A stretch of 64,000 nt of DNA from Candidatus Latescibacterota bacterium (GTDB lineage: Bacteria; Krumholzibacteriota; Krumholzibacteriia; WVZY01). The stretch lies in NCBI GenBank assembly GCA_963791045.1, contig CAWBQK010000001.1, forward strand, positions 64,001-128,000. The letters run 5' to 3'. Both the position numbers and the translations under genes were made by a program. Shown here one piece after another: positions 1 to 17,404 of the stretch. Each line of letters opens with the position of its first letter. The first letter of the stretch is position 1. Below the pieces are notes generated by a model that did not search any database, was not told the origin of the DNA, and was given only the letters and a program-made list of their open reading frames with translations.

Positions 1-34
1 CCGACAAACACAAATCAAACACGAAAGAAGAGGT

Positions 35-2421
35 ATGAAAAAAGATTCCGCTCCTGACAAAGACACGCGCGGGGATGTAAAACACAAGAACGACATGGTG
101 ACGGATTCGGTGGCTTCCCTTAACGCGTTCGATGAACTTCGAGTTGGACCCGCGCGATTGGAAGCACGGCGACTTTCCGCCGCCTACACCGTCGTTCAGG
201 GAGACAAACAAGACACGATCGACCTCGTTTACAGTTATGAAGAAAACGTTTTCGAACCAGAAAATCCCGTAGACCAGAATCTTGCCGACATGATCGCTGC
301 ACAGCTTGCTCTGAACTACGGTTTGTTTTGCACGCGGATTGTATTCGAAGGCACGTTCGATCCCGTCGATCGCCGCTTTCTCCGCGACATGGCGGAAAAC
401 ACGGCAAGAGAGATCTACGTAAACAAGTTTCTTGAGCCGAACCCTTTTCTCTTCGGACCGGCATCGCAGTTGACCCCCACTAAACTCAACCGGTTTTGTC
501 TGGCGGATCTCGTTTTCGCCAGCGAAAAACACAAACCCACAATCGGCTGGAGTCCCAAGAGAGCGCCCATAGCCGTGTCGCAATCTTGTCGAGCGGAGGA
601 AAAGACAGTTTGTTGAGTTACGGCCTATTGAATGAACTCGGATACGAAGTTCATCCCATTTTCGGCAATGAGTCGGGCCGTCACTGGTTTACCGCGCTGA
701 ACGCACACCGTCATTTTGAAGCCCACGTCCCGAACACTTCCAAGGTCTGGATGAATACGGATCGTATCTTCTCCTGGATGCTCCGCCACATTCCTTTCGT
801 CCGAAAAGATTTCGAAAACGTCCGCTCGGACGAATATCCGATCCGGTTATGGACGGTGGCGTTATTCCTTTTTGGCTCGCTCCCAATGGTCCGTAAAAGA
901 AACGCCGGCCGTATCGTCATCGGCGACGAGTTCGACACCACGGTTCGAACGTCCAAGCACGCCATCACGCACTACAATGGGCTCTTCGATCAAAGCAGAT
1001 TCTTCGACAACTATTTGAGCCGCTTCTTTTCCCGCAAACGATGGCGTTTGAGCCAGTTTTCACTCGTTCGACAACTCTCGGAACTCTTGATCGAACGCGT
1101 GCTGATCGCCCGCTATCCCGAGCTCTTCGCGCACCAGGTGTCGTGCCACGCGGCGCACATCGTCGAGTCACGTGTCCACCCCTGCGGAAAATGTGAGAAG
1201 TGCCGCCGTATCGTCGGGATGGTGGTGGCGAACGGAGGGAACCCTGGGGTCTGCGGGTACAACGAGGATCAGATCAGGAGTTGCCTGGAGTCGATCGTCA
1301 AGAAAGGCGTGCACCAGGAACGCCCGGCGGCCGAACATATGATCTGGGCACTCGCTAAACGCAGAAAAATCAATCTCCAACCGGGGCAAAAGGCAAACCC
1401 ACGCCCCGAGGTGATGAAGCTAAGATTCGACCCTATCCGATCTCCGCTCGACGGGATTCCGCAGGATATTCGTGTTCCGCTCTTCCGCGTTCTTCTTGAA
1501 CATGCGGACGGCGCCGTTCGCCGATCGGGCCGGATTTGGGTCGACTTCGACCCGCTGACCGACCCGTCGCTTCATCGCCCTTACCTGTTCGAGAGATCGC
1601 GCCCAAACCGGAACCCGTCCAGTCCGCAATCGTCCCATTCGGAAACCTACATGCTTGGCGAAATGAACTGGCCCGAGGCCCAGCGGAGACTCGCCGAGGT
1701 GGATGTTGCCTTGCTTCCCGTCGGAGCCATAGAGCAGCACGGCCCTCACCTCCCGCTGGACACCGATGCTTTCGACGCGGATTATCTCGCAAAACTCGTG
1801 GCATCTCATTGCTCGGATCCAAAACCAGTCGTGCTGCCGCTCATACCTTACGGCGTGTCCTATCATCACAACGACTTCAGCGGCACAATAAGCATCCGCA
1901 ACGAGACACTGGCGAGCATGGTGTATGAAATAGGGATGGGCGCGTCACGAAACGGCATCACAAAGCTCGTCATCATCAACGGGCACGGCGGCAATGATCC
2001 ATCGCTTCATTTTGCGGCGCAGAAAATCAATCGCGACGCCCACATTTTCGTGTGCGTCGACAGCGGAGAAACAAGCGACGTGGATATCTACGCCATGATT
2101 GACACGCCCAACGACGTCCACGCGGGCGAAATCGAAACGAGCACCAGCCTCGCAACGCGCCCGGAGTTGGTGAAGATGGATAAATTGAAGCCGTTTGTCC
2201 CGGAGTTCTCGAGCCGCTATCTCGATTTTACTTCGAAACGGGGCATCACCTGGTATGCGTTTACGAACAAGATTTCGGCATCCGGCGTGATGGGTGATCC
2301 CACCAAAGCCACCGCCGAAAAAGGCAAGAAGATGTGGGACGTGATGACGCGCAATCTGGTCGAGTTTGTGGAGGAACTCAAACAATTGACGCTCGACGAG
2401 ATCTATCAAAAACGTTACTAA
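35..2421 (+). CDS. MurL/QueC-like PP-loop ATPase domain fused to a C-terminal creatininase-family amidohydrolase; one frame break near 550-575 joins ORFs 35..616 and 496..2421
   Basis: PP-loop SSGGKDS, FSLVRQLSELLI, SCH and CGKCEKC motifs. Creatininase motifs GAIEQHGPHLPLDTD, NGHGGN and HAGEIETS. RBS (GAGG) precedes ATG 35. Confidence 0.75.
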
Positions 2422-2439
2422 ACGCATGGGACAATCAAA

Positions 2440-3504
2440 TTGAAAATCACCCGAATCGAAGCCTGGCCGGTGGAAATGCGGCTAAATGAGCCGTACACGA
2501 TCGCGTATGAGACCGTTGAAACAGCTGTCAATGTTTTCATTCGAATTGAAACGGATCGCGGAATAACCGGATACGGATGTTCCGCACCCGATCTCCAGAT
2601 CACCGGCGAGGATCCGGACGGCGTAATCGAAGCGGTGACCGTAATCGCGGAACCGATTCTCAAGGGTTCCGATCCCCTGCGGCTGGCGCGTCTTATCGAG
2701 AAACTGAAGGACCAGGTCAAGAACCAGCCGGCCGCCGTGGCCGGAATCGACATGGCGCTTCATGACATCCTCGGGAAATATTGCGGTCTTCCTCTGTGGA
2801 AGCTTCTCGGCGGATTCAGAACGTGTTTCAAAACCAGCATCACGATTGGAATCCTGCCCATCGAGGAAACACTCGACAGCGCCCGTCAGTGGTTGAGCCA
2901 AGGGTTTACAGCTCTAAAAATCAAGGGCGGGGCAAACGTCGATGAGGACATCGAGCGGCTGCGCCGGCTCAGAAAATCGGTGGGCCCACGGATTGAGATC
3001 CGCTTCGACGCCAACCAGGGGTATACCGTCGAAGAAACACTCCGGTTTGTGGAGGCCATGCGCGAAGTCAAACTCGAACTCATCGAACAACCGACCTCCA
3101 AAAACGAGCCTGATCTTCTCGGAGCCGTAACAAAAAACGTGTCTCTCCCCGTGATGGCCGACGAAAGCCTCGTAAACCTTCGCGACGCGTTCCGGCTCGC
3201 GAAGAAAGACCTCGTGGACATGGTCAACATCAAGCTGATGAAAGTTGGCGGTATCTATGAGGCCCTTCTCGTCAACGGGGTCGCTAGATCGGCGGGGCTC
3301 GAAGCGATGGTCGGTTGTATGGACGAGGCCGCTCTCAGCATCGCCGCGGGACTCCACTTTGCGCTCGCCCGCCCGAATGTCGCCTACTGTGATCTCGACG
3401 GACATCTCGCCCTCGAGGGCGACCCTTCCGACGGTGCGGTGATCATCCGGAACGGTTACCTGTATCCGACCAACAAACCGGGCCTGGGATTCGACCTTGC
3501 ATGA
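2440..3504 (+). CDS. Dipeptide (L-Ala-D/L-Glu) epimerase family, enolase superfamily
   Basis: KIK catalytic motif, DANQG, EQP, DES, NIKLMK, GCM and DLDG motifs. Confidence 0.9.
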   Translation: MKITRIEAWPVEMRLNEPYTIAYETVETAVNVFIRIETDRGITGYGCSAPDLQITGEDPDGVIEAVTVIAEPILKGSDPLRLARLIEKLKDQVKNQPAAVAGIDMALHDILGKYCGLPLWKLLGGFRTCFKTSITIGILPIEETLDSARQWLSQGFTALKIKGGANVDEDIERLRRLRKSVGPRIEIRFDANQGYTVEETLRFVEAMREVKLELIEQPTSKNEPDLLGAVTKNVSLPVMADESLVNLRDAFRLAKKDLVDMVNIKLMKVGGIYEALLVNGVARSAGLEAMVGCMDEAALSIAAGLHFALARPNVAYCDLDGHLALEGDPSDGAVIIRNGYLYPTNKPGLGFDLA

Positions 3505-3535
3505 CATTCCCTTCCCCGTGATTTTGAACGGCTGG

Positions 3536-3578
3536 ACAAGAAAAAGCATCCCTCCGCGCGAGGGATGCTTTTTCTTGT
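3536..3578. terminator. Bidirectional intrinsic terminator between convergent genes
   Basis: 19-bp perfect inverted repeat ACAAGAAAAAGCATCCCTC / GAGGGATGCTTTTTCTTGT. Confidence 0.85.
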
Positions 3579-3616
3579 ACCTCTCTAATCCGCTACTCCG
3601 GCCAAAACGCCCGTTG

Positions 3617-4828
3617 TCAGGCGAGCGCTTTCGCGATCATTTCGACGAGCCAGCCAATCTGGTCTTCATCGATGATGAGCGGCGGAGCAAAACGAATCGT
3701 CGTCTCATGGGTCTCTTTGGCGAGAATACCCAGATCTTTTAGTTTCTCGGTATACTGCCTCGCCTTCCCCGCCTCGTCCGTGAGTTCGATGGCGTTGAGA
3801 AGACCCATCCCGCGGACCTCTTTGATCTTATCGGTGTCGATGGCGCGGAGTCCTTCGCGGAACTTCTCACCAAGAACCACGGCCCGCTCGTCGAGCTTTT
3901 CGTCGATAAGAACGTCCAGAGCCGCCATTCCAACCGCGCAGGCGACCGGGTTCCCGCCAAACGTGCTGCCGTGCTCACCGGGTCCAATGACCGACATGAC
4001 ATCCTTGGACGCAAGCGCAGCCGACACGGGGTAAACACCACCGCCGAGCGCCTTGCCAACCATCATGATGTCCGGTTTTACATTCTCGTGCATCCAGCAG
4101 AACATCTTGCCCGTCCGGCAAAATCCAGTCTGGACTTCATCGAGCATGAGAAGGACGTTGTGCTTCTCGCAAATTGCTTTGACCTTTGTCAGGTAACCTG
4201 GGCTCGGGACCTTTACGCCTGCCTCGCCCTGGATCGGTTCCACCAGGAACCCCACCGTGTTCTCGGTGATGGCCGCTTCCAACGCCTCGACGTCGTCGTA
4301 CGGAATCACCTTGAACCCCGGCGTCGCGGGACCGAACCCGTCGTGCGCGATGGGGTCGGTCGAAAACCCGACAATCGTCGTGGTCCGCCCGTGGAAGTTC
4401 TCCTCGCAGACAATGATCTCCGCCTTGTTGTCGGCGACACCCTTCTTTTGGTAGCCCCATTTTCTTGCGATTTTAATTGCCGTCTCAACAGCCTCGGCGC
4501 CGGTGTTCATCGGAAGCGCGATTTCCATTTGACAGACATCGGTGAGTTGTTTGAGATACGGTCCGAGCATGTCGTTGTGGAACGCCCGGCTCGTGAGCGT
4601 CAAACGATCCGCCTGGTCCTTGAGGGCCGCGATCAACTTAGGGTGCCTGTGACCCTGGTTCACCGCACTGTACGCCGACAGGCAATCCATGTACTTCCTG
4701 TCTTCGGGATCCCACACCCAGACACCATCGGCCTTGCTTATCACGACCGGGATCGGGTGATAGTTGTGTGCACCGTACGTGTTTTCGAGATCCATGTAGT
4801 ACTGAGAGCCTTTGGCGGCTGTTTTCAT
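3617..4828 (-). CDS. rocD: Ornithine--oxo-acid aminotransferase (class III PLP)
   Basis: GAHNYHPIP, LSAYSAVNQGH, MNTGAEAVE, EPIQGEAG, DEVQTG and PGEHGSTFGGNP. Confidence 0.92.
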   Translation of the reverse strand: MKTAAKGSQYYMDLENTYGAHNYHPIPVVISKADGVWVWDPEDRKYMDCLSAYSAVNQGHRHPKLIAALKDQADRLTLTSRAFHNDMLGPYLKQLTDVCQMEIALPMNTGAEAVETAIKIARKWGYQKKGVADNKAEIIVCEENFHGRTTTIVGFSTDPIAHDGFGPATPGFKVIPYDDVEALEAAITENTVGFLVEPIQGEAGVKVPSPGYLTKVKAICEKHNVLLMLDEVQTGFCRTGKMFCWMHENVKPDIMMVGKALGGGVYPVSAALASKDVMSVIGPGEHGSTFGGNPVACAVGMAALDVLIDEKLDERAVVLGEKFREGLRAIDTDKIKEVRGMGLLNAIELTDEAGKARQYTEKLKDLGILAKETHETTIRFAPPLIIDEDQIGWLVEMIAKALA

Positions 4829-6150
4829 AGCTCCTCTTTCCTTTCCTTGAAGATCACATTGTACGGCTCGAGGGCATCAAGAATCGGATTGTAGATACCC
4901 GGGGACACCGGAACATGACAACCCTTGTCGGTGATCTTCCCATCGAGGATCATCTTGACGGCGATCGCCGCCGGAAGCGAAACGGTCCGCGCGATCGATG
5001 TGTCCTCGCCGGGAATCCCGTAATCGACGAGTGTTGACGTGAGGAACTCTTTCTTTCCGCCCGAGAACTCGGCGACAAATTCGTGATGCATGACAATCAT
5101 ATCCCGCTCATTCTCGCCAATCGACATCATGTCAAGGGTGAGAGCGTTCAGGTAATCGAGCGGATTATCCTTGTCCTTGGGCAAAGGCCGGTCGCTAAAG
5201 AGACCCAGCCAACCAAAACGCTTGATGACGGTCGCATAGGGTTCCACACCGAGGAATTTCGCCGTCGCCAGGGCAATGTCTTCGCCCGGTTTGGCGCCAA
5301 CGAGTTTGGCGGTCACATCACCATAGGTGCTCCCCGAGAAGCCGTCGACGGCATCTTCGCTCAACCATCCGAGGGCGACGATCTTGCGCATGGTCTCGCA
5401 CCAGCCGGTCATCCTGAAGGTGCCGCGGTATACGGTCTCCGAATGGTCCAGGCCGTAGATTTCTTTGTAAGGCACTGAATTCCGGTTTGGATAGTTTTCG
5501 AACGCTCCGACCTCCGGAACATTCTGAACATAGTAGTTTTCAAACAGCTGCTCGCCGGGAACGATGACTTCTTCGCCGTCCGCGAGCCAACGAGCCGAAT
5601 TCTTCGAAGCGAGAAGCACGCCGCGCGGCGACCACGAGAACTTGTACCCGAAGGGGTTCGTGTTCGCTTCGTGCGAGGGAAGCGCGCCGGTCGACGACCG
5701 GAAGCTAACAACTTTTCCGTTCCTGCCCTCGACGTCATGGATGATCCGCATCGCCGACATGTGATCGATTCCCGGATCGAGACCACACTCGTTGAGAAGC
5801 ATCACACCGGCTTCCTTCGCTTCGGCGTCGAGCGCCTTCATTTCGTCGCTGACATACGACGTCGTGACCATCTGTTTCTTGTGCTTGATACAGAACTTGG
5901 CCACCGTAACGTGGTACGCGTACGGAACGAGACTGACAACAACGTCGGAGTTCTTGATTTCGGCTTCCATGCCCGCGAGGTCCTCGACATCGAGTGTCTT
6001 GGCGATTCCACGCGGATGACCGTCGATCATTTTCTCAGCTTTGCTCACCGTTCGCGTCGCAACGACGAGTTCGATATCCGGCTGATCGAGCAAAAATCTC
6101 ACCAGCGGTCGCGTAACCAATCCGGCTCCAAACACCACTACCTTTGACAT
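4825..6150 (-). CDS. Saccharopine dehydrogenase (glutamate-forming; Lys9/AASS SDH-domain type)
   Basis: GAGLV Rossmann motif, ECGLDPGIDHM, NPFGYKFSWSPRGVL, YPNRNS, RGTFR. Confidence 0.88.
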   Translation of the reverse strand: MSKVVVFGAGLVTRPLVRFLLDQPDIELVVATRTVSKAEKMIDGHPRGIAKTLDVEDLAGMEAEIKNSDVVVSLVPYAYHVTVAKFCIKHKKQMVTTSYVSDEMKALDAEAKEAGVMLLNECGLDPGIDHMSAMRIIHDVEGRNGKVVSFRSSTGALPSHEANTNPFGYKFSWSPRGVLLASKNSARWLADGEEVIVPGEQLFENYYVQNVPEVGAFENYPNRNSVPYKEIYGLDHSETVYRGTFRMTGWCETMRKIVALGWLSEDAVDGFSGSTYGDVTAKLVGAKPGEDIALATAKFLGVEPYATVIKRFGWLGLFSDRPLPKDKDNPLDYLNALTLDMMSIGENERDMIVMHHEFVAEFSGGKKEFLTSTLVDYGIPGEDTSIARTVSLPAAIAVKMILDGKITDKGCHVPVSPGIYNPILDALEPYNVIFKERKEEL

Positions 6151-15662: not shown

Positions 15663-16259
15663 CTAAAACAGACGCGGCGTTTTCTCAACCGTTTTCACAC
15701 GGTAACTTTTTCTGTGGGCGGCGATCATCCCGTGCCGCTCTATCGCCTCGATATGCTCCCTCGTGCCGTACCCCTTGTTTCTCAAGAAATTATAAACCGG
15801 GTACCTGTCGTGAAGCCGTCGCATCATCCTGTCCCGCGCCACCTTGGCCACTATCGAAGCGGCCGCAATTGCCAGGCTCTGTCTGTCGCCGCCGATGATC
15901 GGAATAACTTGAGTGGTGGAATCGACCCGGTCACGGCCGTCAACCAGGATTATCGACGGTTCCAGCTTAAGGTTGCCCGCCGCGCGCGCCATTGCGATCA
16001 GCGTGGCATTCAGGATGTTTTTGTCGTCGATGAGTGTGGGGTGCCCGATGCCGATACCAACGGCGAGAGCCTTTTCGACGATTGTGGAAAACACGGTTTC
16101 CCGCTGTTTTTCGGAAAGCCGTTTGGAGTCGTCTACTCCAACGAGGTTTGAATCCGGAGGAAGAATCACCGCGGCGGCAACAACGGGTCCGGCCAGGGCC
16201 CCTCTCCCGGCCTCGTCGAGACCGGCGAGTTGCCGTTCACCACCCGGGCGATGTTTCAC
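15663..16259 (-). CDS. rnhB: Ribonuclease HII (start codon uncertain)
   Basis: GLDEAGRGALAGPV, DSKRL, DG, IAAASIVAKVARD, NKGYGT. Confidence 0.93.
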   Translation of the reverse strand: MKHRPGGERQLAGLDEAGRGALAGPVVAAAVILPPDSNLVGVDDSKRLSEKQRETVFSTIVEKALAVGIGIGHPTLIDDKNILNATLIAMARAAGNLKLEPSIILVDGRDRVDSTTQVIPIIGGDRQSLAIAAASIVAKVARDRMMRRLHDRYPVYNFLRNKGYGTREHIEAIERHGMIAAHRKSYRVKTVEKTPRLF

Positions 16260-16314
16260 GTCAAAAGCCTCGAGACGAGCGTACGTTTCGAGCGACCTTT
16301 TCCGAAAAATACCG

Positions 16315-16686
16315 CTACTTTGCCTTTGTCGGGCGGGGTGTTTTCTTCTCTGGGATTCGAGCCGCTTTCCCAACGAGATCTCTCAAATAGTAGAGCTTGG
16401 CGCGCCTGATCTTCCCGCGTCGCGTCACGGTAATCTCTCTGACATTGGGAGAGTGAAGGGGAAAAACCCTTTCGACGCCAATTCCGGAACTGATTTTGCG
16501 CACTGTGAATGTCTCGCGCGCACCGCCGCCACGCCGCTGGATAACAACACCCTGGAATGCCTGCTGGCGCTCCTTGCCTCCTTCGACGACACGAACGAGC
16601 ACACGGACGGTATCCCCGATACCGAATTCGGTCACGTCTTCCTTGAGATATTTTCTTTCGATTCTGTCCATCGTGTTCATCTTCAT
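16315..16686 (-). CDS. rplS: 50S ribosomal protein L19
   Basis: [44 protein letters not shown]. Confidence 0.97.
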
Positions 16687-16711
16687 GCCTCCCAATAATG
16701 ATTCCGCCGTT

Positions 16712-17404
16712 TTAGTTATTTTTGTCCAACAAATCAGGTCGCATTTCTTCTGTTCTTTTCAGCGAGGATGCCTTCCTCCATTTTTCGATTTCCTTATGAT
16801 GCCCCGAGATCAGTACGTCCGGAACACGCTCACCGCGATATTCGACAGGCCGCGTATAATACGCGCAGTCCAGCAGATAGTCACGTTCTTTTTCGAACGA
16901 GTCGGACTCCCATGTATCCTTGTTGCCGAGAACATCGTCCTGGAGCCTCACGATCGCCTCGATACAGACACCGGCGGCGAGTTCTCCGCCGCTCAGTATA
17001 AAATCTCCTATCGAAACGTCATCGGTAACGACCAGGTCTCTCACGCGCTCGTCGATTCCCTTGTATCGACCGCAGACGAATGTAATCTCATTGAGCGCGG
17101 CGTACTCGTGCGCAAGAGTCTGATTGAACCGTCGTCCGCCGGGGCTCAAAAGAACCACCGGGCTCCCCTCGGATATTTCGAGGGCTTCTACCGATTCGAC
17201 GAGCGGCGGAGCCATCAGAATCATCCCACCCCCACCACCGTACGGCTCGTCGTCTACAGTTTTGTGTTTGTCTTTGGCGTAGTCTCTCAGATTTACAACG
17301 TTGTATGTCACGAGCGACTTTTTTGCCGCAATCCCCAACATCCCCATCCCCAGAATATTCTCTACGACGTCGGGGAAAATTGTGATGACGTTGATTCTCA
17401 TCAA
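16712..17404 (-). CDS. trmD: tRNA (guanine37-N1)-methyltransferase
   Basis: [42 protein letters not shown]. Confidence 0.96.

Follow-up and report, generated by a model that had tools for sequence, protein, structure and literature searches.

To our knowledge, MurL is the only known ATP-dependent (adenosine triphosphate) peptide epimerase. A second route to inverted amino acids pairs DgcN, an N-acetyltransferase of the DUF1611 family, with DgcA, an enolase-type N-acetyl-D-glutamate racemase. MurL requires ATP and Mg, forms adenosine monophosphate (AMP) and acts only from the L to the D configuration (PMC5808125), and reviews of 2018 and 2021 describe it as lacking known conserved domains and as mechanistically unclear (PMC5808125, PMC8788868). 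The D-glutamate pathway of DgcN and DgcA is named in PMC10845958. In the epimerase of Bacillus subtilis, as described in a preprint, Arg24 binds the side-chain carboxylate of Glu, and D321 and D323 bind the dipeptide's alpha-ammonium (bioRxiv 10.1101/2022.05.01.490185). Here we describe a gene at the start of a 64,000-nucleotide stretch of DNA (the window, beginning at G000:C1:64001; the 14 kb upstream constitute locus L002) from a genome bin of a Candidatus Latescibacterota bacterium. The gene belongs to a large, uncharacterised family whose members comprise ~795 amino acids, and in which an N-terminal PP-loop module of the MurL/QueC type (~520 amino acids) is joined to a C-terminal MftE-like amidohydrolase (~250 amino acids), and it is the third gene of a four-gene operon that encodes a threonine synthase (ThrC)-like pyridoxal 5'-phosphate (PLP) enzyme, a DUF1611/DgcN-like protein, the fusion protein and a dipeptide epimerase.

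A preliminary description of the window had joined two open reading frames (ORFs) of the plus strand, 35–616 in frame 2 and 496–2421 in frame 1, which overlap in different frames, into one protein of ~795 amino acids with a PP-loop, further motifs and a complete creatininase domain, and this proposal proved correct. In tblastn searches, the intact homologue P0012 (795 amino acids) aligned through residues 26–172 to frame 2, ending at nucleotide 556, and through residues 174–795 to frame 1 from nucleotide 559, with one residue left unaligned between the two high-scoring segment pairs. A second intact homologue of 795 amino acids, P0002, aligned through residues 1–177 in frame 2 (end at nucleotide 565) and continued in frame 1 from nucleotide 442. 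Given the segment boundaries at 556 and 559, the lesion therefore corresponds to one missing base at approximately 557–559, and the undamaged product would comprise ~795 amino acids. Window positions 35–2421 thus represent a single protein split by the loss of one nucleotide, with its stop codon at 2419–2421. The PP-loop (SSGGKDS, nucleotides 589–609), the segment FSLVRQLSELLI and the SCH and CGKCEKC motifs (nucleotides 1144–1203) all lie in the frame-1 ORF.

The N-terminal domain and PP-loop share one stop-free frame in all 80 metagenome loci analysed (the best 80 of 582 confirmed; denominators below are testable loci), and no match in the phylum contained an internal stop. This genome bin, which is 80.9% complete and 5.8% contaminated, thus stands alone in having the frame break. 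A programmed frameshift was ruled out, given that 80 of 80 relatives are single-frame at the break site. The public gene call for this genome (P0001, window 610–2421) comprises 603 amino acids and begins after the PP-loop; as a result of the frame break, the deposited annotation lacks the ATP-binding motif and the whole N-terminal domain. None of the public sequencing runs used covered nucleotides 470–631; the best of them contained no more than 0.19 of the words sampled. The break reflects either an error of assembly or an inactivation of very recent date. We consider it rather unlikely that this copy is a true pseudogene in a decaying operon and not the product of a sequencing or assembly error. 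The break does stand in the deposited sequence, the public gene call starts past the PP-loop, and a truncated stand-alone variant is known from another genome (L006 of G208). However, the lesion is single, both pieces are 60–77% identical to P0002 with all motifs intact, the other three genes of the operon are intact, and the source is a metagenome bin with measurable contamination.

To place the N-terminal module, we obtained an AlphaFold model with a 22-sequence alignment (pLDDT, the predicted local distance difference test, of 89.3; predicted template modelling score of 0.89). The core of the module (residues ~176–402) matched Cap9 (9nto_B; Z 13.1, root-mean-square deviation 2.6, 178 residues aligned) and QueC (3bl5_A; Z 12.8, deviation 3.2, 191 aligned) in the VIA comparison, in which other PP-loop enzymes scored Z values of at most 9.6. 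Foldseek ranked QatC first (E 6e-6, 472 columns) and also retrieved QueC (E 4e-4). In alignment A2, residues S185, G186, G187 and S190 of the SGGxDS PP-loop, which opens the Rossmann-like core, were kept in at least 90% of the sequences, and a cluster of the form C-x12-C-x2-C-x2-C followed the core, with C369, C382 and C385 invariant and C388 kept in at least 90%. The modelled structure indicates that the N-terminal ~540 amino acids are a PP-loop module of the QueC type, and the four-Cys cluster is probably a zinc site.

Neither Pfam nor NCBIfam assigned the module to a family with confidence. Its only recurring match was the NCBIfam model for MurL (NF041275), with 22.1 bits (E 4.5e-5) for the window ORF and 18.6–27.9 bits (E 8e-7 to 5.5e-4) for all three intact homologues, in the latter over approximately model positions 246–335 only. 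Six of 26 remote relatives also matched at E ≤1e-3, and all matches were located around the segment that runs up to the Cys cluster. The match of P0257, whose relatives are six proteins without names, was stronger (E 7e-10) and extended over model positions 130–354, PP-loop included. All scores were far below the cut-off of 700 bits. No true MurL was found in this genome, in which the best NF041275 match was 15.4 bits and lay at the fusion gene itself, and none of 14 control genomes matched the model. Among ESM Atlas features, 27 of 30 matches fell in MurL_N/MurL_epimerase_C clusters, with a whole-module score of 0.96; the N-terminal domain alone fell in MurL_N clusters (0.86–0.87), a match rated as a lead only. 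Pfam DUF6395 gave a match at E 0.0035. Pfam QueC (PF06508) reached at best 13.1 bits against a gathering score of 22 (E 0.068), in one of three homologues. Indirectly, profile and feature matches thus make membership of the MurL superfamily (MurL_N PF26299, MurL_epimerase_C PF26298) likely. MurL is the closest characterised relative in sequence, and QueC/Cap9 provide the closest fold. The resemblance to MurL and QueC that had been noted from motif order therefore held for the QueC-type fold and for MurL as the nearest sequence, whereas the profile scores (15–28 bits versus 700) indicate that the fusion protein is not a MurL orthologue.

The C-terminal domain matched Pfam Creatininase (PF02633) with 240 bits (E 2e-71) over profile positions 2–238 of 238. 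Its score with the NCBIfam model for MftE (TIGR03964) was 156 bits (149–160 with homologues included), just under the cut-off of 172, and no mft genes were present in the flanks; with the creatininase equivalog it reached 105 bits (cut-off 235). In an alignment with creatininases 3a6e and 3no4, the motifs E-x-H, D, GHGGN and H..E.E fell on the metal ligands and the catalytic His region, and on this basis the domain looks catalytically competent.

A word-seeded protein search, in which 7999 candidates were scored with a threshold of E ≤1e-3, yielded 3162 matches, and 117 of the 120 matches listed were 747–839 amino acids long. These matches indicate that the fusion is not a chance arrangement. 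Among the matches listed, relatives that bear a name are labelled only "creatininase family protein", and carriers include Latescibacterota, Eisenbacteria, Gemmatimonadota, Planctomycetes, Chitinivibrionia and others. Within the phylum of the window, 43 of 208 genomes matched at E ≤1e-20; 37 of these (G000 included) possess the MurL-like/PP-loop part and six the creatininase part only. We examined the flanks of 20 phylum genomes together with L003 (Latescibacterota) and L005 (Acidobacteria), and in 21 of these 22 genome loci the genes for the PLP enzyme, DUF1611 protein, fusion protein and epimerase were found by tblastn in this order on the same strand. In the metagenome loci, a creatininase domain came next in 65 of 67, as an in-frame fusion in 61 of 64, with the epimerase downstream in 44 of 49; upstream, 56 of 60 had DUF1611 and 48 of 51 the PLP enzyme (PALP). 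The linkage of fusion and epimerase on which the preliminary description had rested is thus conserved. Locus L037 (G207:C73:19800-39600) holds a three-gene version (DUF1611, fusion, epimerase), with GroEL and MarR genes upstream, as in L003; no PLP-enzyme gene was present within its 19.8 kb. The spread of the fusion over many mostly uncultured sediment phyla, at 55–70% identity, suggests a useful, mobile trait.

The module also exists outside this architecture. An exhaustive phmmer search with the 540-amino-acid N-terminal module (E ≤1e-3) matched 483 representative clusters, many of them stand-alone proteins of 460–520 amino acids, and remote creatininase fusions of the module were found in P0147 and P0160. 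P0124 (855 amino acids) carries DUF1611 as an N-terminal fusion to the MurL-like module and gave no match to creatininase; the PP-loop module has thus been fused to either neighbour in different lineages. In a Zixibacteria genome (G208; L006:5656-8010), the MurL-like module is a stand-alone gene of 495 amino acids, followed 82 bp downstream by a dienelactone-hydrolase-family gene and then by ArsR, ArsP and thioredoxin genes; this locus contains neither a creatininase domain nor an epimerase. Three other genomes of 121 sampled from the same phylum carry the usual fusion of ~800 amino acids.

The window had been described as containing a two-gene pair, but the operon starts upstream of it, and the DUF1611/DgcN gene suggested for that region is indeed present. 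The TGA of the DUF1611 gene overlaps the ATG of the fusion gene at window position 35, and the two genes are translationally coupled. The DUF1611-like protein matched Pfam DUF1611 (E 6e-59) and DUF1611_N (E 1e-25), and its best solved relative was 2g0t (E 1e-38); its score with the NCBIfam DgcN model was 144 bits, under the cut-off of 480. The first gene encodes a fold-type-II enzyme that scored 414 bits with PRK06381 "threonine synthase" (cut-off 266) and whose best solved relatives are threonine synthases (E 3e-24). Downstream, the epimerase gene begins with a TTG at 2440 after a gap of 18 bp, and the strong terminator hairpin recognised beyond it also stood up (z −7.57; none of 200 shuffles was equally good). 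A consensus terminator scan made no call at 3534–3581, probably because the stem continues into the T-run. The hairpin, which is symmetrical, probably terminates transcription in both directions, between the operon and a convergent aminotransferase gene. A MarR-family regulator gene (L002:11181-11672, minus strand) lies divergently upstream of the PLP-enzyme gene, and MarR is also found near the operon in L003 and L037, from genomes of the same family.

The epimerase contains both halves of the mandelate racemase/muconate-lactonising-enzyme fold. Among solved structures, it matched the dipeptide epimerases 3rit (E 6.5e-73), 3jva (2.6e-72) and 1jpm (2.5e-68) best, whereas N-acylamino-acid racemases matched at only ~1e-21. 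We compared 23 operon copies (the window and the 22 loci), which are not independent given that 21 of the loci derive from one phylum. Residues K162 (of KxK) and K265, the Mg ligands D190, E216 and D241, and D318-x-D320 were kept in all 23 copies and mapped onto K162, K268, D191, E219, D244, D321 and D323 of the B. subtilis enzyme. Conservation of the DxD clamp therefore predicts a true dipeptide with a free N-terminus as substrate. Position 24 is occupied not by Arg but by Glu in 22 of the 23 copies and by Gln in one, and D295-E296 is kept in all 23, so that the pocket is acidic. An acidic C-terminal residue would therefore be disfavoured, and a basic or neutral dipeptide is a likelier substrate than Ala-Glu. 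The best NCBIfam score was obtained with the Thermotoga L-Ala-D/L-Glu epimerase (231 bits versus a cut-off of 500), with 92 bits versus 343 for the other Ala-Glu equivalog and 156 bits versus 400 for DgcA. The earlier label of Ala-Glu epimerase is thus unlikely from the pocket residues.

To extend the analysis beyond the operon, 106 flanking ORFs of the 22 genome loci were scanned, eight very long ORFs being left out. Among them, no gene family was present in most loci, no Mur ligase or amidase was found, and no conserved transporter (peptide transporters included), peptidase or regulator stood beside the operon. Maturation of a ribosomally synthesised peptide or of a mycofactocin-type product was rejected as a role, there being no precursor or radical S-adenosylmethionine (SAM) gene nearby; the peptide precursors and Mur ligases that had been suggested for such neighbourhoods were thus not found among the genes scanned.

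The reading that we favour, although with somewhat less than even confidence, is one in which the enzymes of the operon acylate, epimerise, activate with ATP and cleave an amide; we infer all of its substrates and reaction steps. The DUF1611 protein would N-acylate or N-aminoacylate a small, probably basic amino acid, itself perhaps a product or a substrate of the PLP enzyme. The enolase-type epimerase would equilibrate the acylated product at its C-terminal alpha-carbon. The PP-loop module would adenylate a carboxylate, with release of AMP and pyrophosphate, and this activation would give the route its direction, as ATP does for MurL, before the tethered hydrolase domain cleaved the amide. 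Overall, the operon would be related to the DgcN-DgcA scheme of acylation, racemisation and deacylation, with ATP as the driving force. Several observations weigh against this proposal. The order of the steps is guesswork, and there would be some redundancy between two enzymes that both change the configuration of a single C-terminal residue. A free alpha-ammonium group, and hence a true dipeptide, as the DxD clamp suggests, agrees better with a ligase role for the DUF1611 protein than with acetyl transfer as reported for DgcN. The PLP enzyme is left without a role in the scheme, and L037 does without its gene. The similarity to MurL is weak (15–38 bits) and local. In addition, the lack of a conserved transporter, peptidase or regulator renders a catabolic role indistinguishable from a biosynthetic one. 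A further possibility, which we regard as improbable, is that the fusion protein is itself an ATP-driven stereo-inverter. The MurL-like module would adenylate an N-acyl or N-aminoacyl amino acid at its C-terminal carboxylate, the resulting adenylate would yield a five-membered cyclic intermediate (oxazolone or imidazolone) that loses its configuration, and the creatininase domain would open the ring stereoselectively, so that a basic amino acid or dipeptide would be pumped irreversibly between configurations. Such a course would also explain the mechanism of MurL. Creatininase itself opens a five-membered cyclic amide, and the Zixibacteria locus, in which the stand-alone module is followed not by a creatininase domain but by a hydrolase for a five-ring lactone, fits this proposal anecdotally.

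The favoured scheme has two rivals. In the main one, which we judge unlikely but deserving of serious attention, the operon is biosynthetic. The PP-loop module, like QueC, Cap9 and QatC, would adenylate a carboxylate and couple it to ammonia or an amine, with the creatininase domain supplying the nucleophile by amide hydrolysis (compare the glutaminase domains of PP-loop synthetases) or removing a protecting acyl group. The product, such as a compatible solute, would be a small amino-acid amide or dipeptide, and the PLP enzyme would make the unusual amino acid. In favour of this reading, the nearest folds belong to carboxylate-amine ligases or to nitrile synthases, the operon stands by itself and includes no genes for uptake or for peptidases, and ThrC-like PLP enzymes typically serve amino-acid synthesis. 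Genes for mechanosensitive channels, CorA or DUF5698/DUF2179 membrane proteins lie nearby in L003, L039, L041, L042, L045 and L047, and DUF5698/DUF2179 occurs in 6 of the 80 metagenome loci. However, MurL is nearer than QueC both in sequence and in ESM features, the epimerase would have no obvious role in plain amide synthesis, these neighbours occur in a minority of loci from mostly related genomes, and we know of no creatininase-fold ammonia donor. The other explanation, that the pair serves to recycle or remodel peptides of peptidoglycan (L-Ala-D/L-Glu or UDP-N-acetylmuramic acid peptides) with the fusion as a MurL-type Glu epimerase joined to an amidase, takes up one of the substrates proposed earlier and now appears very improbable. 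It draws on MurL as the closest characterised relative, on the Thermotoga Ala-Glu model as the best match of the epimerase and on an L,D-transpeptidase near one locus (L051). Against it, that match is far below its cut-off and Arg24 is replaced; the genome lacks a true MurL; and the 106 flanking ORFs scanned include neither a Mur ligase nor an amidase. MurI (TIGR00067) scores over its cut-off in 192 of the 208 phylum genomes, G000 included (C13:29599-30300), so that the operon does not stand in for MurI in the manner of MurD2/MurL, a partnership that serves a genome without the racemase. As a lead only, stand-alone relatives of the module cluster partly in Thermoplasmatota, which are wall-less.

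Table 1. Positions of the fusion gene, its operon partners and recurrent neighbours. Plain numbers are window positions.
Feature	Position	Strand	Basis
Fusion gene, piece 1: MurL_N-like N-terminal domain	35..556	+	tblastn with P0012 and P0002; AlphaFold pLDDT >90, residues ~30-160
Frame break: loss of one base compared with all relatives examined	557..559	+	Boundaries of tblastn segment pairs
Putative QueC/MurL-like PP-loop ATP pyrophosphatase domain, then helical C-terminal subdomain and linker	559..1659	+	Fold matches, Cys conservation, local NF041275 match
Creatininase-family (MftE-like) metal amidohydrolase domain and stop codon	1660..2421	+	PF02633, MftE score, motifs
Enolase-superfamily dipeptide epimerase	2440..3504	+	MR_MLE_N and MR_MLE_C
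DUF1611/DgcN-like gene, 3' end	1..38; whole gene G000:C1:62935-64038 = L002:12935-14038	+	Pfam/NCBIfam
Threonine-synthase-like fold-type-II PLP enzyme	L002:11814-12938, outside window	+	NCBIfam PRK06381
Symmetrical hairpin (A-run, GC stem, T-run)	3534..3581	.	RNA fold −34 kcal/mol
DUF5698+DUF2179/channel neighbourhoods	L003:13596-16464; L039:4526-6146; L041:4810-7780; L045:7213-7797 and 16113-17174		

A membrane protein with DUF5698 and DUF2179 is encoded adjacent to the operon in L003, L039, L041 and L045; three of these four loci also encode a CorA Mg2+ transporter nearby, and two encode MscS. Over all genome loci, CorA was found in four, MscS or MscL in three and transporters of the major facilitator superfamily in three. 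These neighbours might reflect a transport or osmotic link, or nothing. On the other side of the hairpin, an ornithine–oxo-acid transaminase gene (window 3617-4828, minus strand; TIGR01885, 568 bits, over the cut-off) and a saccharopine-dehydrogenase-family gene (window 4825-6150, minus strand) converge on the operon, an arrangement also found in two metagenome contigs, L059 and L062 (70–76% nucleotide identity). It is possible that the pair hints at a link to basic amino acids, or that it is simply lineage synteny. Each of these associations outside the operon is confined to a minority of the loci and could stem from common ancestry.

The operon is an orphan pathway, in which known superfamilies appear in a new combination. 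Its five constituent modules all derive from well-known superfamilies, yet they are combined in no described pathway. Our literature search, which covered sources other than subscription journals and supplements, found no publication on the fusion or the operon and turned up no characterised enzyme with this fusion, in agreement with the preliminary description. That the nearest relatives of MurL fold as QueC-type PP-loop enzymes provides a concrete framework for MurL chemistry. Once found, the substrate would add a new route to the metabolism of D-amino acids or dipeptides, and would provide an annotation for thousands of genes labelled only "creatininase family protein".

Comparison with the known systems shows likeness in each module together with differences in context. 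Stand-alone relatives of the PP-loop module (460–520 amino acids) are similar in length to the 447-position MurL model, and the matches cover the region from the PP-loop to the Cys cluster; the AMP formed by MurL would be explained by a PP-loop fold of the QueC type. Unlike MurL, the fusion protein is linked to a hydrolase and is encoded beside DUF1611, a PLP enzyme and an enolase-type epimerase in place of MurD2, its hosts keep MurI, and its substrate is probably not a Glu-terminated muropeptide. QueC, Cap9 and QatC are the best structural matches of the core and share the SGGxDS PP-loop, and QueC has a comparable Cys zinc site. However, sequence similarity to QueC is negligible, the additional N-terminal domain and helical tail of the fusion are absent from QueC, and the fusion lacks a 7-deazaguanine or defence-system context. 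With MftE and creatininase, the C-terminal domain shares its full extent and its metal and catalytic motifs, whereas it is covalently joined to an ATPase and has no mycofactocin genes, precursor peptide or radical-SAM enzyme nearby. DgcN and DgcA represent the same two families side by side (DUF1611 and an enolase-type racemase) and the same sequence of modifying an amine, inverting C-alpha and removing the group. The operon possesses in addition PP-loop and creatininase modules and a PLP enzyme, and its epimerase differs from DgcA in the dipeptide DxD clamp and in Glu at position 24. The dipeptide epimerases (YkfB of B. subtilis, 1jpm/1tkk; 3rit of M. capsulatus; 3jva of E. faecalis) match over the full length, with an identical catalytic Lys pair, Mg ligands and DxD, the difference from the YkfB type being Glu for Arg at position 24. 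The C-M-D-E segment is common to the operon epimerase and 3rit, which was reportedly solved with a basic dipeptide. Given that the tested thresholds or defining residues were missed, the operon proteins are not members of the MurL, QueC proper, MftE, creatininase proper, DgcN/DgcA or Ala-Glu epimerase equivalogs, but they clearly belong to the superfamilies of these enzymes.

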